DNA from: a candidate division WOR-3 bacterium
GTDB lineage: Bacteria; Hydrothermota; Tepidihabitantia; Tepidihabitantales; Tepidihabitantaceae
Length of the DNA: 64,000 nt
Direction: 5' to 3'
NCBI GenBank assembly: GCA_965649205.1
Contig: CBFGJV010000008.1
Location: 29,479-93,478 of the forward strand
Below, one piece after another: positions 41,225 through 51,778 of the stretch. Each line of letters opens with the position of its first letter. The stretch's first letter is position 1. Under the pieces are notes generated by a model. That model saw only the letters and a program-made list of their open reading frames with translations. It searched no databases and was not told the origin of the DNA. A program made the position numbers and the translations under genes.

Positions 41225-41488
41225 TCAGTTAGGTTGCACGGGGATTACCGAGACGCGTTTCTTGTTTTTGGAAGCGTAATCAAATCTTACTACGCCGTCA
41301 ACGAGCGCATAGAGAGTGTCGTCTTTCGCCCGGCCGACATTGAGTCCGGGTAGGAAGCGGGTGCCGCGTTGTTTGACGATAATGTTCCCGCAACGCACTA
41401 ATTGGGAAGCGAAGCGTTTGACACCCAGTCTTTGCCCCGGGCTGTCGTGGCCGTTTTTGGCTGTTCCACCGCCCTTTTTATGTGCCAT
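41225..41488 (-). CDS. rpmA: 50S ribosomal protein L27
   Basis: [34 protein letters not shown]. Confidence 0.97.
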
Positions 41489-41592
41489 TTGTTATGCTCC
41501 TTAATGATCCTAGTTTGTGCGGAGGGGAATTATAAACCCACGCAAGATGGTGTCAATGCCAAAAGAGAAAACCGTGCAGAAAATATGGCAAA

Positions 41593-42951
41593 TCAGTCGC
41601 GGGCTCCGAGTCCTAGTATTTTTAAGAAGGCGTCGCGACCGGTGTTAATGCGCCAGGCTGCCCAAGCACCAAGCACGCGGGCGGTGTGGCTTATCGGATC
41701 GCTCCCGGGCTCGGACACACGAAGCAGGAGCGGAAGTGTGGAGAAGCGGGTGACGATGGCAAGGAGAAACAGGAGATGGAAATTGATAAAGCTGCGGCCG
41801 AAGATTGTCAAGTGGAAGCCGGCGAGAAGCTGGGCGAGTACCCCGGAAAGCAGAGAAGAAGCACAGGAACAGAGTCCGGTGACACCAAAGTAGGTGGCGA
41901 AGTAGCTTTCTTTGTGCGCCGGGTCTTCCGCCAGATTGAACATGAGGCTCCAGAAGCCAAGTCCGGCACCGGTGGATATGGCGCCGTTGAGAATCGCATC
42001 CAAATATATGGGGAGGCGAAAGCTGGGCGTGGCCAGTAGCCAGAGCAGAGGAAGGACGTTGACAACGAGTATAGTGAGAACAGTTATGGGTCTTGCCCCA
42101 AAGCGGTCAATCATCTTGCCCCAGAAGAGCTGGCCGGCGATGCCGGTTACACCGGTGAGGAGAGAGTAGAGGCCGATGGCGGCAAAAGAGAAGTGGAGAT
42201 TGCGCATCATATGCACGAGATAGAAAGGGCCACCAATGGTAGCGAGAAAACACCAGCCAGCCATAAAGAGGATGAAACGACGAAAGCTTTTTTCCCGCAG
42301 GGGACCAAGAAAGGTCTGTTTCAGGCTGAGTGGGGGGCGGTATTTCACGGGCATTTCCGGTTGCCAGCTTATGATTACGGAGGCAATCCACCCGAATAAA
42401 ACAGCGAGGCCAAATCCCAGTCCGTAGCCAAGGTGTTCCTGATTGTGGGCTTTGAATGCATCCAGGGCCCGGCCGCCAACGTAAGCTGTAAGGACGGCGA
42501 TCATGCCGTGAATGGCGTTACGGAAGCCAAAGTAACTGCCGCGACTTTCTTCTGGCACTAGGTCAGACATCCAGTAGGTCCAGATGGTGCCGGCCACAGT
42601 CATTATGATGCTGGACAGGATTAGCATGAGAAAGAGTAGGATAATGGGCATTTTCCTGCCCAGCAGCAGGAAGGGCACGGGCAGTATATACAGAGTTCGG
42701 CCAATGAATCCGCCAATCTGACTCAGGAGTTTGCGGGTGCCGAAGCGACGCACCAGGTGTCCGGCAAGAAAACCGAATCCCGAAGAGAGAGCAGGAATGG
42801 CAGACAGCAGGGCTATCTGGAAGGAGTTGGCGCCGAGCCAGAGAGCAAGGCCAGTAAGAAACATACCTGTGGTGAGAGCAAAATGCAGGGTGGCGAAACC
42901 TCCTTCGATGATTGATATACGCAAGCCACGCTTTATTTGCTCTGGTGTCAC
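41593..42951 (-). CDS. MFS transporter (paralog 2)
   Basis: ~12 TM, WMSDLVPEESRGSYFG, DRFGARP; GTG overlaps upstream TGA. Confidence 0.88.
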   Translation of the reverse strand: MTPEQIKRGLRISIIEGGFATLHFALTTGMFLTGLALWLGANSFQIALLSAIPALSSGFGFLAGHLVRRFGTRKLLSQIGGFIGRTLYILPVPFLLLGRKMPIILLFLMLILSSIIMTVAGTIWTYWMSDLVPEESRGSYFGFRNAIHGMIAVLTAYVGGRALDAFKAHNQEHLGYGLGFGLAVLFGWIASVIISWQPEMPVKYRPPLSLKQTFLGPLREKSFRRFILFMAGWCFLATIGGPFYLVHMMRNLHFSFAAIGLYSLLTGVTGIAGQLFWGKMIDRFGARPITVLTILVVNVLPLLWLLATPSFRLPIYLDAILNGAISTGAGLGFWSLMFNLAEDPAHKESYFATYFGVTGLCSCASSLLSGVLAQLLAGFHLTIFGRSFINFHLLFLLAIVTRFSTLPLLLRVSEPGSDPISHTARVLGAWAAWRINTGRDAFLKILGLGARD

Positions 42952-44345
42952 TCTTCTCGCTCCTTCAGTCGCAATGCTTCCAGGAATGCGTCTCGTCCGC
43001 TGTTGATACGCCAGATGGCCCACTGGCTGAGTACGCGGACGGTGTAGCGAACTGAGCGGCTGCTCCGTTGTTGTACCCGGATGAGCAGGGGCAGAGAAGC
43101 AAAGCGAGCAGTTCCGGCCGCCAGAAAAAGCACATGGTAGTTGACGAATTCACGGCCGAAGAGAGTAATATGGAAACCGCGCAGGGCCTGAGCGATTATT
43201 CCCGAAATCGTGGAAGCGGCAAAGGCACAGAGCCCGGCTACTACAGTATAGATGGCAAAGTAGCTTTCCTTGTGCTGGGGGTCGTCAGCAAGTTCTAAGA
43301 GCAAATTCCACAGGCCGAGGTGAGCGCAGGACCAGATGATGCCGTTGGAGATGCCGTCCAGCCAGATGGGCAGGCGAAAGCTGGGCGTGGCGAAAAGCCA
43401 AAGCCAGGGCATAATGCCGACAAGGGAGAAGCCGAGAATGGTAACTGGTCGGGCGCCGAATCTGTCTATAACCCGTCCCCAGAAGAGTTGAAATACCATT
43501 CCTGTAAGACCGCCGAGGACAGAGTAAACGCCTACCGCGGCAAAAGGGAAATGTAGATTTCTGAAAAGGTGAACCATATAAAAAGGAGAAGCGAGGGTGC
43601 CGGTGAGAGAATATACGGCCTGAAAGGTAATGAGCCGGCGAAATTGAGGTTCTTTCAGTGGGCCCAGAAGCAGACGCCGTAGGCTAAGAGCGGGACGGGT
43701 TGAAAGAGGTGGCTCTGGTTGGCGGCTGAGGGCCAGGGTGGAGATGAGGCCGAATACAGTGGCTAGGCTGAAGGCCAGGCCATACCCGAGCTGTTCGTGT
43801 CCCCGGGCCTTGAGGGCATCCATAGCTCGGCCGGCCGAAAAGGCGGTAACTACGCCAATGACGCCAAGGACGGCGTTGCGGGTGCCAAAGAAACGTCCGC
43901 GTCTGTCTTCCGGGACTAGTTCAGACATCCAGGAGTTCCACACTGTGCCGGTTATAGTGCCGAGTATGCCGGTGAGCGCCACAATGACGAAGAAAAGTTT
44001 GAGGCTGATAGGTATATTGAGGAGCAAAAAAGGTACGAGTACGGCGTAGAGTATGCGACCGAGAAGAGAGCTGGTTATTACTATTTTTTTGCGCGAGCCT
44101 ATTTTACCTACGAGATAGCCGGAAAGAAAGCCGAAACCGGAAACAAGAGAAGGAATGGCAGAGAGCAGGCCTATTTGGAAGGAATTGGCGTGCAGGTAAA
44201 GCGCCAGACCGGTGAGAAACATCCCCCCGGCCAGCGTGCCGTATATAGTGGCGAAGGACCCTTCGAAAATGGAAATACGCAGGCTGCGGCGCAATTGCTC
44301 CGCACTCAGAGAGGAGGAGGGCTGGGTTTCCTGGATGTCAGCCAT
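42948..44345 (-). CDS. MFS transporter (paralog 1)
   Basis: ~12 TM, WMSELVPEDRRGRFFG, DRFGARP; collinear with downstream paralog. Confidence 0.88.
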   Translation of the reverse strand: MADIQETQPSSSLSAEQLRRSLRISIFEGSFATIYGTLAGGMFLTGLALYLHANSFQIGLLSAIPSLVSGFGFLSGYLVGKIGSRKKIVITSSLLGRILYAVLVPFLLLNIPISLKLFFVIVALTGILGTITGTVWNSWMSELVPEDRRGRFFGTRNAVLGVIGVVTAFSAGRAMDALKARGHEQLGYGLAFSLATVFGLISTLALSRQPEPPLSTRPALSLRRLLLGPLKEPQFRRLITFQAVYSLTGTLASPFYMVHLFRNLHFPFAAVGVYSVLGGLTGMVFQLFWGRVIDRFGARPVTILGFSLVGIMPWLWLFATPSFRLPIWLDGISNGIIWSCAHLGLWNLLLELADDPQHKESYFAIYTVVAGLCAFAASTISGIIAQALRGFHITLFGREFVNYHVLFLAAGTARFASLPLLIRVQQRSSRSVRYTVRVLSQWAIWRINSGRDAFLEALRLKEREE

Positions 44346-44387: not shown

Positions 44388-45248
44388 TCATAAAAACATC
44401 TCGGCAGCATGGAAGGAACTGCGTACCAAGGGTCCGCATGCTGCCTGTTGAAATCCCAACTGGCTAGCCGCCTGTTCCCATTCCTGAAACTTCTCGGGCG
44501 GCACGTAACGCGCCACCGGCCAGGAGGTGCGGGTTGGTTGCAGATATTGTCCTATGGTTACGATATCGCAGTCAACGCTACGCAAGTCTGAGAGCGTGTC
44601 AAGAACTTCTTTGTCCGTCTCTCCCAGCCCCACCATCAGGCCACTTTTGGTAATCAGGTCCGGCTTGCTGCGTTTGGCTTCTTGCAGTACCGCTATTGAT
44701 TTTTCGTAGGAGGAGCGGCGGTCTCGCACCACGGGACTGAGTCGCCTGACAGTTTCCAGATTATGGCCGAATACATCTGGTTGTGCATCCACTACCCTGC
44801 GGATAAGTTCCGGCCTGGCGGCAAAGTCCGGAACGAGCACTTCTACGCGAACTGGATTCTTTTGTCCGGTAGAAATAGCCCGACACGCGGTAACGGTCCG
44901 AGCAAAGAGGTCTGCACCGAAGTCGGGCAGGTCATCACGGGTAACAGAGGTTATGACTATATAGCGCAGGTCAAGTTGTCTCGCCGCTTCAGCCACTCGG
45001 ACAGGTTCGTCCTCTTCTACTTTGCCCTGCGGGTTGCCGGTCTGCACAGAGCAAAACTGACAGTGCCGCGTGCAGGTGTTGCCTAGAATAAGAAAAGTGG
45101 CTGTACGTCTATTCCAGCAGTCTGCTAGATTGGGACATCTGGCCGCGGTGCACACAGTGTTCAGCCCATAGCTGCGTACTTGTTTAGCTACCTCGGCAAA
45201 GGCATCACCAGAAGGCAGGGCAGTTCTCAACCAGGCTGGTTTTTTCAT
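44388..45248 (-). CDS. lipA: Lipoyl synthase
   Basis: KPAWL, CTAARCPNLADC (CX4CX5C), CTRHCQFC, TIGQYLQP, RSSFHA. Confidence 0.96.
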   Translation of the reverse strand: MKKPAWLRTALPSGDAFAEVAKQVRSYGLNTVCTAARCPNLADCWNRRTATFLILGNTCTRHCQFCSVQTGNPQGKVEEDEPVRVAEAARQLDLRYIVITSVTRDDLPDFGADLFARTVTACRAISTGQKNPVRVEVLVPDFAARPELIRRVVDAQPDVFGHNLETVRRLSPVVRDRRSSYEKSIAVLQEAKRSKPDLITKSGLMVGLGETDKEVLDTLSDLRSVDCDIVTIGQYLQPTRTSWPVARYVPPEKFQEWEQAASQLGFQQAACGPLVRSSFHAAEMFL

Positions 45249-45268
45249 CAGAAAGAACTGGGAAAAGT

Positions 45269-46549
45269 TTACACCCTGATTTTCAGGGACGACCGGGGGC
45301 AGCGCCAGGCACACTCAAAGCAGCGTATGCATTCCAGCTGGTTGGGGGACTGGTAAGGTTCTATGTCGGTAGGGCATACTCTACGACATATATTGCATTT
45401 CGTGCAGGTAGGCGTATCCAGCTGTAGGCGTAGGAGGCTTAACTTGTTGAATATACCGTAGATAGCGCCGATGGGGCAGATCAGGCGACAGAATGGTCGT
45501 TTGATAGATAGGGCCGCGGTCAGGACCAGTAGTAACAGACCAATTTTTACCCAGTAAAGCCAGCCGACCAGTCCCCGCAGGCTGTTTACCGGGTCCCAGA
45601 GTACCAGCGGTATACCGGCGCCCAGCGTGCCCTGAGGACACAGCTTGCAGAACCAGGGTTCGATTGTGAGGTAAGAAGCCAATCCGGCTACAAGCAACAG
45701 GAATCCGTACTTGAGAAAAGTGGCCGGTAAGCGGAAATTGAGGACTATGTCCAAGAGGACAATTATTCCGGCCGTAATTGCGGCTAGGATTAGAGACAGG
45801 GGCGTGCCGGAGAAGGGGCCCAGAGAAACGGCGGGGCCAAGTTGTGCCAGAAGGAAAGCGGCTACGGTTGCCGGGATGGTTCCATAACGACCACCCAAAA
45901 GGCCGAATAGTGTCATCCCTGCGGTGCCGGCTACCACACCAAAGCTGGCGCCGTATTTCCACCAGACAAGCGCTCCCAGACCGATACCGGCAAGAAGGCC
46001 ACCAGTGTAGAGGCGGCTAGGAAGTTCGAGCTTGCCCCGCCACAGGAGAAAGAAGACTGCCAGCATGACGGGCAGCCAGCCGTACAGCAAGGGTCGCCAC
46101 CAGATAACATGCAGAAATACCACTAGCAGTGCGATAATAATGAGACCTATAATGCCAATAATGGCAAGCGTAAGCCAGCGTTTCTTTCCCGCCCGAGGAC
46201 CAGTTTTTACTTTGTAGAGCAAGTCTTGCCACAGTCCAAAAGGGCACATCCACGCACACGCAGCCCGGCCTACGAAAGCGCCCACAATTACAAAGACACC
46301 AATTACCAGCCAGGGGATCGTTTTCATTCCTATCATCTGCTGCAGAGAACCCAGAGGGCAGGCAAAGACAGCAAGGGGTCCGCCATAGCAGTTAAGTATT
46401 GGTTGGGGTATGTGCTTGAAGAAGCCCTGGTAGATTATCTTCTGTTGAATGTAGGCTAGTATATAGGCATTGAGAAGAATAGCGAAGATAATCTGCGCCA
46501 AGCGATAGGGCGCAATTCTCCGTCTGGCGCGAGGTAGCGGGGTATTCAC
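45269..46549 (-). CDS. NapH/MauN-like 4Fe-4S membrane electron-transfer protein
   Basis: CAWMCPFG, CKLCPQG, CRLICPIG, CTKCNICRRVCP, CIRCFECAWRCP; many TM helices; start taken as GTG 46549. Confidence 0.88.
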   Translation of the reverse strand: MNTPLPRARRRIAPYRLAQIIFAILLNAYILAYIQQKIIYQGFFKHIPQPILNCYGGPLAVFACPLGSLQQMIGMKTIPWLVIGVFVIVGAFVGRAACAWMCPFGLWQDLLYKVKTGPRAGKKRWLTLAIIGIIGLIIIALLVVFLHVIWWRPLLYGWLPVMLAVFFLLWRGKLELPSRLYTGGLLAGIGLGALVWWKYGASFGVVAGTAGMTLFGLLGGRYGTIPATVAAFLLAQLGPAVSLGPFSGTPLSLILAAITAGIIVLLDIVLNFRLPATFLKYGFLLLVAGLASYLTIEPWFCKLCPQGTLGAGIPLVLWDPVNSLRGLVGWLYWVKIGLLLLVLTAALSIKRPFCRLICPIGAIYGIFNKLSLLRLQLDTPTCTKCNICRRVCPTDIEPYQSPNQLECIRCFECAWRCPRSSLKIRV

Positions 46550-46561
46550 AGACTGAAATAG

Positions 46562-46578
46562 AGGGCTACACGAGCCCC
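46562..46578 (-). promoter_or_regulatory. SECIS-like hairpin
   Basis: GGGGCT-CGTGT-AGCCCT starting 11 nt after the TGA; G second in the loop. Confidence 0.7.
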
Positions 46579-46703
46579 ATACAGGATAGTCATATGTGGG
46601 CCGCGAAGCGGTGGATAGTTTCGGGGTCGCCAAGCCAGATGCCCATAGCTACAGCCACAATTCCGGCAAGAACCAGCACAAGGAAAATAATCCTACGTCT
46701 CAT
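46566..46703 (-). CDS. 45-aa CD1871A-like CxxC membrane peptide with predicted selenocysteine (MRRRIIFLVLVLAGIVAVAMGIWLGDPETIHRFAAHI-U-LSCMGLV)
   Basis: Manual translation; in-frame TGA at 46592-46590 where the family has the first Cys of ICxxCxGI/L; TAG stop 8 codons later. Confidence 0.8.
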
Positions 46704-46704
46704 A

Positions 46705-48168
46705 TCAGAACTTGGAGATCAGTTGTATTTTAGCGCCGCGGAAAGGAGATTCAAAGCGGCACACCCCGCCCGAACAGGTATAGCCGCCGCGTTCGGCCCC
46801 TAGTCTTGCCCGGAGCATGTTGCGTTGGTTTACGGACCAGACCAGTTCCAACATCGGCCAGGATTGCTGTCCGTTGTAACGGCGCTCCAGTTTCATATCT
46901 ACTCCCTGACAGCCAAGCGTGAAGAGTAGCGCCTCCCCTAGACCGTAACTTAGAGCAAGTGCGGTTTCGTGATACCTCCAAGGCACGTCCATGCCGCCGG
47001 TATCTTCCTTGACAAAACTGTACTCCGCCGTCAGTCCCAGCGTATGTTCTCCTCGGAGATAGTTGACATGCAGGACGGGCTTGTCTGTGCTACGGCCGAC
47101 AACGTGCAGTTCGATATTCTGCTGCACCATATGATTGAAGGCGGCTTCTACCGTCCAGTCTGAAGCAGGAGAGTAACGAGTCTTGGCCTCCCATTCTACC
47201 ACGCCAGTTGTACTGTCCTTGTGGCGATACAGGCGGCCATAATTCGCTTCCATATACAGCGCAGGAAAAGGTGTGCCTGTGGCAGTAAGTCCGAATCCCC
47301 TTTCATCCACACCTCGGTCAATGGCTACGCCTGATTTTATAGGCGTAGGCGGATCGCCGTAGTGATAGGCAGCCTGCGGATAACTCAGGCGGTCGTAGTC
47401 CATCACCTCGGCCAAAACAGAGTAACCGGAAACAGCCGTAGTAGCACTCAGATAGTAGCCGAAACCCTTATCCCGGCCGCCTATACCGGGTCTAGTGCCG
47501 AGCCGCTGACACATTTCCAGATAGAGTTCTGCCGGGCCCAAGGTAGCAGAAATGTTACCACCCAGGAATTCGGTGAAAGCCTTGGGCGAAATATCCCGCT
47601 CGCTGTTTATGCGCACATAACGTCCGCCCAAGCCGGCATGGCCCGCGGTCCAGTCTGTTCCTTTCCATTGCAGAGGACGCGTGGACAATTCCGCACCCAA
47701 CACTTGATCGGTCGTGTCCGCCGCATTCAAGGTTTTGTAGGTGTTTTCCTGAAAGAATATGTCACGCATCCTGCCGCCAAGAAGTACAAGTTCGGTGGAG
47801 AACGGTAGGCGGGCGGTCCCTCTTAGTCCGTGCAAGCTTTTGTAGTGGCGGAAATCTTCGTCGGAGTATGTGCGTAGGGACAGACCTTTGCCGAAGGTTT
47901 GAAAGAATTTTCCGTACAGCACTTCGAACTGCTGCGGACTGTAGGCAAGGGTATAGTCAAACAACCGCAGGGGCTTGCGCAGTGCGTCCCAAGGCTTGGA
48001 TGGCTCGTACAGGAAAAATCCCAGTTCTCCACGCAGGTCCGCGTAGCGCAGGTTAAGGTCCAGCTTGTCTTCTAGTTGAGTGGCCCAGGTATCTTGCGTT
48101 ACCCAGAGTTCAACTCGGTTTGCGCCCTGCACAGAAAGTTCTGCCGCAGCCAGCGGTAGAAATGTCAA
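46705..48168 (-). CDS. DUF6029-like outer-membrane beta-barrel protein (true start uncertain)
   Basis: GKFFQTFGKGLSLR, amphipathic beta strands, C-terminal GGYTCSGGVCRFESPFRG..ISKF. Confidence 0.8.
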   Translation of the reverse strand: MTFLPLAAAELSVQGANRVELWVTQDTWATQLEDKLDLNLRYADLRGELGFFLYEPSKPWDALRKPLRLFDYTLAYSPQQFEVLYGKFFQTFGKGLSLRTYSDEDFRHYKSLHGLRGTARLPFSTELVLLGGRMRDIFFQENTYKTLNAADTTDQVLGAELSTRPLQWKGTDWTAGHAGLGGRYVRINSERDISPKAFTEFLGGNISATLGPAELYLEMCQRLGTRPGIGGRDKGFGYYLSATTAVSGYSVLAEVMDYDRLSYPQAAYHYGDPPTPIKSGVAIDRGVDERGFGLTATGTPFPALYMEANYGRLYRHKDSTTGVVEWEAKTRYSPASDWTVEAAFNHMVQQNIELHVVGRSTDKPVLHVNYLRGEHTLGLTAEYSFVKEDTGGMDVPWRYHETALALSYGLGEALLFTLGCQGVDMKLERRYNGQQSWPMLELVWSVNQRNMLRARLGAERGGYTCSGGVCRFESPFRGAKIQLISKF

Positions 48169-48229
48169 GAGCAGACTGCAGGTCAGAAGCCGGTAGGATA
48201 GGACGGCAGGTGCAAACTGGCTCGTGTGC

Positions 48230-48778
48230 CTATTCTCCTTTTGTTTTCGCGCCGGAGGTGTCGGGCTTAACCGGCGGCAGCCACTTTAGGAACTCTTCCT
48301 TTATACGTTTTTCGTCGCCCTTTTTGTACCCTATATGAGTATAGACAATTTTGCCTTCCATATTGATAAGAAAAGCGGTAGGCTTTATGATAATGCCGTA
48401 GGCAGACTTTACTTTCTGCTGTTGGTCCAGAAGCACGATGTAGGGCCACTTTTTTGCTTTCACAAATGCTTTTACCCGTGCTTCATCCGCGGGTTTGTCC
48501 ACAGACAGAGCGACTATCTGCAGTCCCCGGTCTTTCAGCGAATCGTATATGGGCAGCAGGGCGTCAAGCTCGGCGATACAGTTTACACAGGGGAGGTCCC
48601 AGCATTCCATATACACCGGTCCTTTCACCAAAAGGCTTTCTAGCGTTACTTCGACGCCGCTGATGTCTTTGAGGGTGAAACGGGGAGCGGTTTCGTATTT
48701 CTTTTCGGATGAAGCGGTTGCCAATACGACAAATGTCAAAAGACAGGAAATCAGAACAACCTTACATAGCTGTCTCAT
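48230..48778 (-). CDS. TlpA/ResA-like exported thiol-disulfide oxidoreductase
   Basis: Signal peptide, APRFTLKD, WDLPCVNC (CxxC), ALSVD, PTAFLINMEGKI; AGGAGG RBS. Confidence 0.9.
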   Translation of the reverse strand: MRQLCKVVLISCLLTFVVLATASSEKKYETAPRFTLKDISGVEVTLESLLVKGPVYMECWDLPCVNCIAELDALLPIYDSLKDRGLQIVALSVDKPADEARVKAFVKAKKWPYIVLLDQQQKVKSAYGIIIKPTAFLINMEGKIVYTHIGYKKGDEKRIKEEFLKWLPPVKPDTSGAKTKGE

Positions 48779-48786
48779 TTTTCCTC

Positions 48787-49527
48787 CTAATGTTGGAAAC
48801 GGTGTACCGTTAAGGATTGTACAATACTGGAATCCTTCATATCTTGAATGAACACGGCCGCCCCCAGCCGTGCCGGATTGCAGCCCGTGATGTTGAAACG
48901 GAAAGTATCGTATAGCGTGTCTCCGCGAGATAGATTGATTCTCCGCCCGGCGTAGTCGGGCAGAACGCGACGCGCCACCCGGTCCCAGACCAGGGGGAAC
49001 CGTCCCTGCGTAGCCAGGCTGTCTTCGGTAACTATGACCACCAGGCGCAGGTCTGCGTTTGGAGCAATGGAATCGGTTGTAGTTCTTATTACCAGCAGAC
49101 CGGTCAGAGTGTCGGCGTAAGTGCTTTCTACAGCCAGAGAAGTGAAGGTGGGGCGGGACTTGGCTACATCAATGTTGTCGGCAAAAACTGCGGCGTACTG
49201 ATTGGGCGCATACAGGTCCAGATTAACTGTGGGTTTGGCGTCGAGATAGAGCATCTTAGGAGGGGAGCGACGGGCGCTGTCTTCGGGCAGTACCGCAAAT
49301 CTACCTACGGGTAGAAAAATTACCACCGGCATAGCCGAGTCGTAGCGGAAAGCGGAAAGGCTGTCCAGTGCCCGCGCCGCGAGCACGCAATATCCTCAAG
49401 TGGTGTCACGAAAGTTTATCTCGGCCAGTACGTTCCGGCTGGTTTCCTGAACCGGTATTATGGGGGCATCTGAGCAGGTTAAAGCCCCCAGGAGAAACAG
49501 TGCAGCCGCATATGGTACCCGTGTCAT
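48787..49527 (-). CDS. Omp28-related lipoprotein with predicted selenocysteine (UGYC)
   Basis: Reading through TGA 49398-49396 joins MTRVPYAAALFLLGALTC (lipobox) and RNVLAEINFRDTT-U-GYC to the 199-aa ORF, which has Omp28-like LVVIVTED..VARRVLPD..G..AVFIQD..IVQS. Confidence 0.82.
49368..49386 (-). promoter_or_regulatory. SECIS-like hairpin
   Basis: GTGCTCG-CGGCG-CGGGCAC starting 9 nt after the TGA; G second in the loop. Confidence 0.7.
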
Positions 49528-49533
49528 CATCAT

Positions 49534-49561
49534 ATCATAGAACTAGGTCATACACTGTCAA
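49534..49561 (-). promoter_or_regulatory. Sigma70-like promoter of the selenoprotein operon (probably leaderless)
   Basis: TTGACA-16-TATGAT followed immediately by ATGATGATG; no Shine-Dalgarno. Confidence 0.7.
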
Positions 49562-50096: not shown

Positions 50097-51620
50097 CTAA
50101 GGTCGCAGGAGTTTTATTATCCGGGTCGGTTCTTTGTCCGGCTGAAGCTCGCAGTAGTACACACCACTGGGAAGCTGGCCGATGTCGTACCTGATCGTGT
50201 GCAACCCTTTGCATAAGTCCCGGTCAATCAGGGTGAACAAATTCCGTCCCGAGATATCGGTTACGCGCAGCCGCACGCGCTGGGGGCAAGAGAGGGAGAA
50301 GTGCAGGATGACTACGTGCTGGCAAGGATTGGGAACGCCGAAATGGGTACAAGGCGAACCTTTACGCAGGCCTACGGTCTCGCTAACGCCGACAAAACCG
50401 TTTGTGTCGGTCTTTATGACCGAGAAGTCGGCATTGCCTAGGGTCAGGCTGTCCCAAGAGTTTGCGTCGCGCCAGCCGGCAATGACTATTCCGTTGTCGG
50501 CGGTAAGTATGATGGCAGAGGGGTCGTCATTCAGCGGGCCCCCGTACCATCTTGTCCAGAGCGTGTCGCCGGTACCATTCAGTCTGAGCAGCCACCAGTT
50601 GTCATAACCCATCCCTGGTGGTGCATAGGTCTGGGAATAGGCGGCAAGGTAGTAGCCACTGCTGCGGCTTTCGACAATACTGGTTCCTCCCTCATATCTG
50701 CCTCTGGTGCCAATGGTCTTTGTCCATTCCGTGTCAGCGCGGGAATCCAGTTTCATAACCCAGATGTCCCGGCTTGGAAATACATCGTTGCGGCTTCTCT
50801 GACCTGCAACTATCCATCCGCCGTCTTTTGTTCTTTGGGGTCGGCTGAGTGTTGTCAGGCTATCCTCGCGGAATGACATCACTTTTTGCAGGTTGCCGAA
50901 CGTATCAATCACAAGATAACTGCCAAAGCCCATGTAAGCCGGAGGAAACGGCCATTCGCCGGTGCAACTAAATGCGGTCATCAGATAGGCGCCGTCTCCG
51001 GCCGGAGCGATTCCGGCTCCCTGGTCTGCGTACTGCAGGTCATAGGTTCTGGTCCATATTGTATCGCCATTCTGATTGAGCTTCAGAAGCCAGATGTCCT
51101 TGCCACCAATCTGGGTTCCGCGGCTTTTGGTGTCACCCAGAAGCAGATATGTGCCGTCCGGGTTCTGAATTATTGCGCCGCCATTGTCTTCCAGAGTATC
51201 ACCGATTGTCTTGTCTGTAAGGATTTCGCCATCCTGACTGACTCTTAGAAACCAGACCTGCCTTCCGTAGCGGGGACTGTACTTGGTGCCGGTAAAGACC
51301 AGCTCGTTGTTATTGTTCAGGATTACGTCAAAGATGAAGTCTCCGCCTGCACCGATACCCATCGTGCCAACCCGTCTGGTCCAGACTGTGTCCCCGAAAC
51401 GGTTTATTTTGATAATGTAACCGTCTTTGTCCCAGGGGATGTTGGACCAAGTTCCGCCACACACGACGAAATTGCCGTCGTTTGTTTCCACGGCACCGCC
51501 AAGCGCGAATTCAGCCCGGTCGGGTATTCCGTACTGTCTTATCCAAGTTATAGGTTCAGCCATGGAAACCGCTGTTAGCACGAACACAAGGCGGGCAGTT
51601 ATGCTGGCAACTCCCTGCAT
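50097..51620 (-). CDS. Secreted beta-propeller repeat protein with T9SS-like CTD
   Basis: Repeats WLLKLNQNGDTIWTRTY / WVMKLDSRADTEWTKTIG; C-terminal PNP..DISGR..PSGVYY. Confidence 0.85.
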   Translation of the reverse strand: MQGVASITARLVFVLTAVSMAEPITWIRQYGIPDRAEFALGGAVETNDGNFVVCGGTWSNIPWDKDGYIIKINRFGDTVWTRRVGTMGIGAGGDFIFDVILNNNNELVFTGTKYSPRYGRQVWFLRVSQDGEILTDKTIGDTLEDNGGAIIQNPDGTYLLLGDTKSRGTQIGGKDIWLLKLNQNGDTIWTRTYDLQYADQGAGIAPAGDGAYLMTAFSCTGEWPFPPAYMGFGSYLVIDTFGNLQKVMSFREDSLTTLSRPQRTKDGGWIVAGQRSRNDVFPSRDIWVMKLDSRADTEWTKTIGTRGRYEGGTSIVESRSSGYYLAAYSQTYAPPGMGYDNWWLLRLNGTGDTLWTRWYGGPLNDDPSAIILTADNGIVIAGWRDANSWDSLTLGNADFSVIKTDTNGFVGVSETVGLRKGSPCTHFGVPNPCQHVVILHFSLSCPQRVRLRVTDISGRNLFTLIDRDLCKGLHTIRYDIGQLPSGVYYCELQPDKEPTRIIKLLRP

Positions 51621-51778
51621 GACTTGTTTAATTGTAGTTCTGCCCGGAAACCCGTCAATTTCATCACTTGTCCGGCGAGGCGCATTCACTTCCTGTGCAC
51701 TTGCGCGCCCTGAGTCGGAGTATATAATGTTACTCAGGTCAGCCGGATAGCTTTCCGGGACTCTGTATCAGGCCGGAG

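Follow-up and report, generated by a model that had tools for sequence, protein, structure and literature searches.

Among the described systems closest to the gene cluster analysed here is the DsbD/CcdA pathway with its TlpA-, ResA- or DsbE-type partners. The cluster lies in a stretch of 64,000 nucleotides from a candidate division WOR-3 bacterium (assembly GCA_965649205.1, contig CBFGJV010000008.1, positions 29,479 to 93,478; "the window" is this whole stretch). Its five core genes encode a lipoprotein and a membrane peptide that almost certainly both carry selenocysteine (Sec, U), an exported TlpA-type thioredoxin, a DUF6029 barrel and an iron-sulfur (Fe-S) membrane protein with Fer4_5 domains. 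With the DsbD/CcdA pathway it shares an exported TlpA-type C-x-x-C carrier and an outward flow of electrons, suggested here by gene context, and outside the class of the window genome the two show a partly complementary distribution. Unlike that pathway, the cluster gives no DsbD_TM match in any of its proteins; its presumed conduit is the Fer4_5 protein together with the peptide of 45 amino acids (aa), and it adds a predicted outer-membrane barrel and a Sec lipoprotein.

Other described systems resemble parts of the cluster. The MtrCAB system also comprises a lipoprotein, a periplasmic carrier and a wide, plug-less barrel encoded in that order, but the cluster is devoid of haems, its carriers would be dithiols or selenol-thiol pairs, insertion of a partner into the barrel would be hypothetical and no sequence kinship was seen. 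The lipoprotein has the fold and the N-terminal thioredoxin motif of HBP35/Omp28 of Porphyromonas gingivalis (5y1a, 2r2c; PF11551), from which it differs by Sec in place of the first Cys, a predicted lipid anchor, the lack of a type IX secretion system (T9SS) tail and an identity of only 12%. The peptide has the size (about 45 aa), hydrophobic N-terminus, C-x-x-C-x-G end and place directly before a 4Fe-4S membrane gene that are typical of CD1871A (NF040920), as in Peptoclostridium acidaminophilum; unlike CD1871A it has U-x-x-C here and C-x-x-U in one related family (f26), and it scores under the cut-off. NapH-like and YccM proteins (PF12801; PMC8238504) resemble the Fe-S protein in their Fer4_5 domains, multiple membrane helices and ferredoxin domain, but in the cluster the partners are thiols and selenols, with no flavin mononucleotide-binding domain or respiratory reductase, and its Fer4_5 protein has an extra outer set of Cys residues (C40, C50, C136 and C139). 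The SAO and Tso operons likewise combine several Sec genes with bacterial selenocysteine insertion sequence (bSECIS) elements, but they encode different families, and TsoB is a rhodanese/DsbD fusion whereas the cluster is without a DsbD domain (PMC13188914).

Relatives were sought in a phylum sample of 251 genomes, 156 of which gave a DUF6029 match. Genomes, contigs, fetched loci and families are denoted G, C, L and f, respectively. For the cluster itself, the loci comprise 80 stretches around the better DUF6029 matches and 13 further loci, minus two duplicates; 70 of them represent the window and the nearer families, and 66 of these have enough upstream DNA.

Layout of the cluster and its selenocysteine codons

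Six co-oriented minus-strand genes lie downstream of a near-consensus promoter (window coordinates):

49534..49561, minus strand: sigma-70-type promoter TTGACA-16-TATGAT, 11 of 12 consensus bases
48787..49533 (alternative start ATG 49527), minus strand: U-x-x-C lipoprotein of HBP35/Omp28 fold, translated with TGA as Sec
49396..49398, minus strand: Sec codon TGA of the lipoprotein, TTUGYC context
49368..49386, minus strand: bSECIS hairpin of the lipoprotein, 8 bp, loop beginning with GG, 17 nt past the TGA
48230..48778, minus strand: TlpA/ResA-like exported thioredoxin, CVNC (PF00578, PF08534)
46705..48213, start uncertain, minus strand: DUF6029 predicted outer-membrane barrel, CSGGVC (PF19494)
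46566..46703, minus strand: CD1871A-like membrane peptide, 45 aa, ULSC, translated with TGA as Sec
46590..46592, minus strand: Sec codon TGA of the peptide, IULSCMG context, Cys at the aligned site in 34 relatives
46562..46578, minus strand: bSECIS hairpin of the peptide, 3' arm taking in the TAG stop and the first bases beyond
45269..46549, minus strand: NapH/YccM-like Fer4_5 membrane polyferredoxin (PF12801)
44388..45248, minus strand: lipA (lipoyl synthase), score above the NCBIfam cut-off

The gaps are 8 nt between the lipoprotein and TlpA genes, uncertain between TlpA and DUF6029, 1 nt between DUF6029 and the peptide, 16 nt between the peptide and Fer4_5 and 20 nt between Fer4_5 and lipA. 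A sequence-only reading of the window had described one promoter followed by tightly packed co-oriented genes with redox-type Cys motifs, and the genes, their order, the motifs and the promoter were all recovered, positions included. In 52 of the 57 Sec-type loci a promoter with at least 9 of 12 consensus bases stands 5-9 nt 5' of the lipoprotein ATG, and the transcript is therefore likely leaderless, beginning at or near ATG 49527 in the window. The terminator scan of the cluster gave no excess over shuffled sequence.

Both TGAs almost certainly encode Sec, and we regard the selenoproteins and the operon as real with high confidence. The sequence-only reading had proposed Sec at both codons, SECIS-like hairpins after them and a search of the genome for the Sec machinery; the codons, the hairpins and the machinery all found support. 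The window genome (97.95% complete) contains selA, selB, tRNA-Sec (selC) and selD, selD itself holding one TGA. A selA match was found in 34 of the 36 genomes of the window's family and in none of the 11 genomes of f8 or the 8 of f25; six more distant lipoprotein loci from f8 and f25 have Cys instead of TGA. Both hairpins lie 17 nt past the TGA and fit the bSECIS model, a stem-loop with G in the first two loop positions located 16-37 nt after UGA (PMC13188914).

The hairpins covary among relatives, in which TGA alternates with Cys. That of the lipoprotein is paired in 95.1% of cells, six of its eight pairs show two-sided changes, none of 500 shuffles scored as high and slid windows gave 25-55%. 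The peptide hairpin is paired in 97.5%, and its 3' arm passes through the TAG stop; one of its pairs joins the wobble base of a Gly codon with the first base after the stop (G-C 14, U-A 10 and C-G 9, of 33). A strict hairpin rule, written with knowledge of these two hairpins, was satisfied by 52/57 Sec-type and 0/6 Cys-type lipoprotein loci, by 29/34 Sec-type and 1/34 Cys-type peptide loci, and, as background, by 25 of the 814 TGAs that close long frames in the window genome. Three cases speak against Sec: genomes G203 and G216 have the TGA without a selA match (92% and 87% complete), and the metagenome locus L174 encodes a Cys lipoprotein without the hairpin in an otherwise typical cluster.

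Two other explanations of the TGAs were rejected. They are not marks of pseudogenes, because codon, downstream frame and hairpin persist among proteins that share about 25-30% identity; nor do they reflect a code with TGA as Trp or Gly, because TGA stops the DUF6029, lipA and a major facilitator superfamily (MFS) gene here and aligns to Cys.

The suspicion that standard annotation would truncate the lipoprotein was justified, since the public gene call is a 199-aa fragment after the TGA, so that gene callers cut the Omp28-fold selenoprotein at this codon; the public gene-call collection checked contains no entry for the part of the peptide gene before the TGA. Another exported redoxin of the window genome (G000:C16:18999, plus strand) has the sequence W-T-N-T-U-P-S-C and a SECIS-like hairpin.

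Proteins of the cluster

The lipoprotein has 248 aa when TGA is read as Sec, with the motif TTUGYC (U-G-Y-C), and a conserved Cys-Ser after its signal peptide suggests lipidation. It was found in 59 of the 66 loci, with TGA in 58 and an assembly gap at the codon in the remaining one. The model (AlphaFold2, pLDDT 89.8) combines a thioredoxin domain with a beta-rich C-terminal domain, the arrangement of HBP35, and its best fold match is HBP35 5y1a (TM 0.71, E 1.5e-9). The PDB sequence search gave weak thioredoxin matches only. The PF11551 (Omp28) score is 22.4 bits, below the curated cut-off of 34.9, and just 2 of 46 orthologues match this family at E<=0.001. The Omp28 and CD1871A names of the sequence-only reading thus hold as "-like", by fold and by layout, respectively, but not by score.

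Two loci without a lipoprotein upstream of TlpA, L101 (G157) and L106 (G010), come from genomes 96-98% complete with no selA match; five other lipoprotein-less loci do carry selA. Many relatives have paralogous secreted Omp28-type genes (EEAYxExUxxC, with SECIS-like hairpins) just down- or upstream of the cluster, at L040:12765, L043:12791, L046:12245 and L050:14142 and 15236 (oriented coordinates) and in L053, L055, L056, L059, L063, L065, L068, L090 and L093. The window genome has one Omp28-like match only.

The TlpA-type protein combines an export signal (recognised by eye), a redoxin domain and C-x-x-C, as expected of TlpA/ResA-like thioredoxins; PF00578 and PF08534 score above their cut-offs and the ResA subfamily model below. 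Its gene stands immediately upstream of the barrel in 66/66 loci, and its motif always has Cys.

The DUF6029 assignment of the barrel stands (PF19494, 66.4 bits against a cut-off of 27). No ATG is available as a start for this gene: upstream, its frame extends open to 48213, and the earliest common start codon, TTG at 48168, would give a short signal peptide. The model (AlphaFold2, pLDDT 92.8) has 24 strands as counted from DSSP and no plug. The C-x4-C (CSGGVC), present in 91/91 loci, sits on a beta-hairpin of the last long loop, which the model would place outside the cell, as short and long loops alternate. The nearest folds are usher pores with TM of about 0.5, which tells size, not function; MtrB (6r2q) is match 10. 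Atlas feature matches of the barrel and the Fe-S protein fell in the same Pfam families.

The peptide has a hydrophobic N-terminus and the end IULSCMGLV. The first motif position is U in 34 of the 70 loci and C in 34, so that the "two selenols" proposed by the sequence-only reading apply in families f1 and f5 only, half of the loci having a Cys peptide. The CD1871A model NF040920 gave 25.8 bits (U read as C) against a cut-off of 32; six other WOR-3 peptides did not match it and the P. acidaminophilum peptide scored 63.4 bits. A profile comparison of the peptide family with CD1871A was weak (probability 41%). Genes of Cys-type peptides mostly overlap or almost touch the Fe-S gene, often by ATGA, and those of Sec-type peptides are followed by a spacer that holds a hairpin arm. 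Two genomes of f26 (L139:3860, L152:4004) have CLSU, with Sec at the second Cys, and here the hairpin of 8 bp is unlike the UxxC one and lies wholly in the 3' untranslated region past the stop.

A tree of 148 Fe-S proteins, dereplicated and rooted at the midpoint, groups the 32 loci with UxxC in a single clade (support 0.99) and the two with CxxU in a separate one. The peptide therefore probably acquired Sec on two occasions, at a different Cys each time, which points to a redox activity of the motif. It would be a clean case of selenoprotein birth, in which either gain brought its own newly formed SECIS, reaching partly or entirely beyond the stop codon. A search for fusions of the peptide with the Fe-S protein among longer proteins gave 4 matches in 8000 candidates scored, none of them such a fusion, which is weak evidence. 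In L092 (G161) an unassigned open reading frame of 408 aa lies between the DUF6029 and Fe-S genes, and no peptide gene was seen immediately downstream of the barrel.

The Fe-S protein has eight near-invariant membrane Cys and a 2[4Fe-4S] ferredoxin domain with eight more. C40, C50, C84, C88, C139, C189 and C193 are Cys in 148 of 148 sequences, C136 in 141. By Lys/Arg counts C40/C50 and C136/C139 face outside and C84/C88 and C189/C193 inside, before the ferredoxin domain, and we infer that the membrane Cys may bind two further clusters. PF12801 (Fer4_5) is matched, but the NapH/MauN model TIGR02163 reaches 52.6 bits against a cut-off of 213, so that the protein is NapH-like only; no nap genes occur in the loci. 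Many f1 loci (L038, L040-L044, L050, L051, L053, L055, L057, L059-L063) encode a form of 535-544 aa that is extended at the N-terminus by a hydrophobic stretch of about 110 aa; two hydrophobic inserts are common to all f1 copies and absent from a 262-aa form.

Neither PF11551 nor NF040920 appears in the available part of the 2026 catalogue of 119 selenoprotein families, which has generic UxxC thioredoxins (PMC13188914). Full-text literature searches gave no match for an Omp28-type selenoprotein or for CD1871A, for which no published function was found; a search combining NapH, flavinylation and an AlphaFold set was likewise empty, and that on DUF6029 gave one work (PMC9603273). The terms Omp28 and CD1871 gave no hits in the available text of PMC13326102, PMC12013277 and bioRxiv 2022.07.06.499078. 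Two selenoprotein families are therefore absent from the catalogue checked, and the Omp28-fold UxxC type spans at least WOR-3 and Zixibacteria.

Gene order and the peptide/Fe-S pair in other lineages

The five core genes are adjacent in 57/66 loci. Gene order, which the sequence-only reading had named as a check, is thus conserved, and with it the joining of the two modules (lipoprotein-TlpA-barrel and peptide-Fe-S protein). The lipA gene, which that reading had listed at the end of the system, does not belong to its core: it follows the Fe-S gene in just 33/66 loci and is likely a co-transcribed passenger. In 16/66 a gene for a GltD-like flavoprotein takes this place, and the two never occur together. 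A lipoate/biotin-ligase-family gene is on a different contig from lipA; this sole match to the family lies about 2 kb from tRNA-Sec (both within G000:C14:18506-20805).

The GltD-like protein is an NAD(P)H Fe-S flavoprotein (GltD/SudA-like) with an N-terminal two-helix membrane anchor, and its gene adjoins the Fe-S gene in f23, f40 and f12; it is a candidate cytoplasmic electron donor. It was repeatedly seen beside the Fe-S or DUF6029 gene (L133:4763-6361, L094:2499-4052, L137:5082-6728, L121, L123, L145).

The Fe-S gene occurs in 195/251 phylum genomes. Comparison also connects this gene and the peptide with thioredoxins of the envelope in lineages independent of one another. The order in f21 is PDO-TrxB-TlpA-peptide-Fe-S, with a DUF6029 match in 0/20 genomes of this family; one f28 genome has a Trx/CcdA-like fusion gene after the Fe-S gene; and in P. 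acidaminophilum TlpA lies two genes upstream of the pair. In eight metagenome loci between one and five UxxC genes of Omp28 type come after the Fe-S gene; several of these are dockerin-tailed and most have SECIS-like hairpins. A TlpA-type gene lies within 5 kb in four of the eight, and in four the proteins fall in Zixibacteria-named clusters or have near-identical neighbours there. The Omp28-type UxxC loci L219, L221, L223, L229, L232, L234, L235 and L238, likely from Zixibacteria, often form tandem arrays, and the database gene calls checked for such genes start after the TGA.

The sequence-only reading had called the chain DsbD-independent. This stands for the cluster itself but is not forced for the genome, in which a ccdA-like DsbD_TM gene is present on another contig. 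DsbD_TM (PF02683) was found in 119/251 phylum genomes, and outside the class in 33/50 genomes without the Fe-S gene versus 20/90 with it, counts in which kin are not independent and weak matches may be other proteins.

Direction and role of the proposed chain

With somewhat better than even confidence we read the five-gene cluster as a chain for reducing disulfides of the envelope that would stand in for DsbD/CcdA by means of iron-sulfur clusters. Electrons would enter at the cytoplasmic 2[4Fe-4S] domain, donated by ferredoxin or by a flavoprotein that uses NAD(P)H; in sister families the membrane-anchored GltD-like gene is coupled to Fer4_5. Two clusters bound by the four inner and four outer Cys would pass the electrons across the membrane. 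The U/C-x-x-C of the peptide might then convert one-electron steps to a dithiol or selenol-thiol, analogous to ferredoxin:thioredoxin reductase, and TlpA would carry the electron pair into the periplasm. There it would reduce the UxxC lipoprotein and the disulfide of the barrel loop, so that exported or surface thiol and selenol proteins are kept reduced. Sec would be a lineage-specific tuning of two redox centres, not needed by design.

A dithiol chain is proposed because the pair adjoins TlpA, TrxB, CcdA-like or Omp28-type genes in separate lineages. The five-gene synteny, the GltD-like gene after the Fe-S gene in 16/66 loci, the lower frequency of DsbD_TM in genomes with the Fe-S gene outside the class, the probable twofold gain of Sec in the peptide, the Cys conservation and the positive-inside pattern favour it as well, as do two observations on related proteins: the CxxC of HBP35, the closest fold, reduces insulin (PMC2907840), and NapH-like proteins, described with flavinylated and not with thiol partners, have been proposed to move electrons across membranes (PMC8238504). 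If true, this reading suggests a way for anaerobes to reduce envelope disulfides without DsbD and gives a testable function, from gene context, to the CD1871A-like peptide, the YccM-like clade and DUF6029; the all-Cys pair of the cultured P. acidaminophilum makes that function testable without selenium genetics.

Several findings weigh against the reducing chain. The lipoprotein is missing upstream in 7/66 loci, and the membrane-anchored GltD-like protein was found in 0/57 relatives of f1-f5 and not in the window genome. Many peptide/Fe-S loci have no thiol-redox neighbour (e.g. L131-L135, L138, L143-L150 except L145), and inside the class DsbD_TM occurs in 65/105 genomes positive for the Fe-S gene. 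The sole DsbD_TM match of the window genome lies on C11 in a unit of arsR, ccdA and thioredoxin genes, which brings a thioredoxin lipoprotein of its own, so that TlpA could be fed by that route. The first transmembrane helix of the Fe-S protein is weak in the hydropathy profile, and the PDB sequence search matched its ferredoxin domain only, with no solved structure for the membrane part. A role of DUF6029 in polysaccharide export has been suggested (PMC9603273).

A wider version, which we hold as possible but doubtful, extends the chain by analogy to a complete haem-free and DsbD-free conduit from the cytoplasm to the surface, made of the Fe-S wire, selenopeptide, TlpA, barrel and surface Sec lipoprotein. 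The four-cluster wire and the selenopeptide would act as a membrane-bound ferredoxin:thioredoxin reductase, and the rest would be a "porin-thioredoxin" analogue of MtrCAB through which secreted selenoproteins are recharged. If true, the peptide and the Fe-S protein in the inner membrane would represent a third class of carriers of reductant across the membrane, widespread among anaerobes (WOR-3, Zixibacteria, Bacillota).

It is rather unlikely that two separate modules merely share one promoter, namely a trio for transport or assembly (of polysaccharide, protein or metal) and a general electron-carrier pair. The barrel disulfide would then be structural, TlpA would be fed by CcdA, for which the ccdA-like gene of the window genome speaks, and the pair would serve other partners. 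The modules are indeed unlinked in f8, f18, f25 and other families, the trio of f27 occurs with the Fe-S gene in 0/3 but with DsbD_TM in 3/3, and both the usher-like fold and the suggested polysaccharide role of DUF6029 (PMC9603273) would suit a transport function. However, no conserved polysaccharide export genes surround the cluster in the loci scanned, the pair adjoins TlpA or Omp28-type genes without a barrel in f21, Zixibacteria and Peptoclostridium, and in f15 and f40 the two modules lie near one another again in another orientation.

The opposite direction of flow, in which the lipoprotein and TlpA would oxidise envelope or secreted proteins and the pair would drain electrons inward as an anaerobic substitute for DsbB, we consider improbable. 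Proteins of the TlpA/ResA type usually act as reductants and 2[4Fe-4S] ferredoxins usually have a low potential, and the TrxB, CcdA and NAD(P)H flavoprotein neighbours belong to reducing pathways. In favour of this direction, secreted proteins with T9SS-like tails abound in the WOR-3 loci, and hbp35 complemented an Escherichia coli dsbA mutant, as noted in PMC2907840.

Least probable is a unit that handles or reduces metals, with the peptide motif as a metal or Fe-S ligand completing a cluster shared with Fer4_5: the peptide does stand right before the Fe-S gene in 34/40 phylum loci checked and in 77 of the best 80 of 498 metagenome matches, often with ATGA overlap, and one copy lies among SO_0444-type metal-efflux genes (L136), but the 16 conserved Cys of the Fe-S protein would by themselves suffice for four clusters, and thiol-disulfide proteins are the dominant neighbours.

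Upstream of the cluster, window positions 50097-51689 (minus strand) encode a beta-propeller-like secreted protein with a weak match to the T9SS C-terminal domain. Downstream, two tandem, similar MFS transporter genes (41593-44345, minus strand) begin 42 nt past lipA and may share its transcript; a perfect promoter, TTGACA-16-TATAAT (41529-41556, minus strand), follows, and some 40 nt further on comes an rpmA-like (L27) gene (41225-41488).

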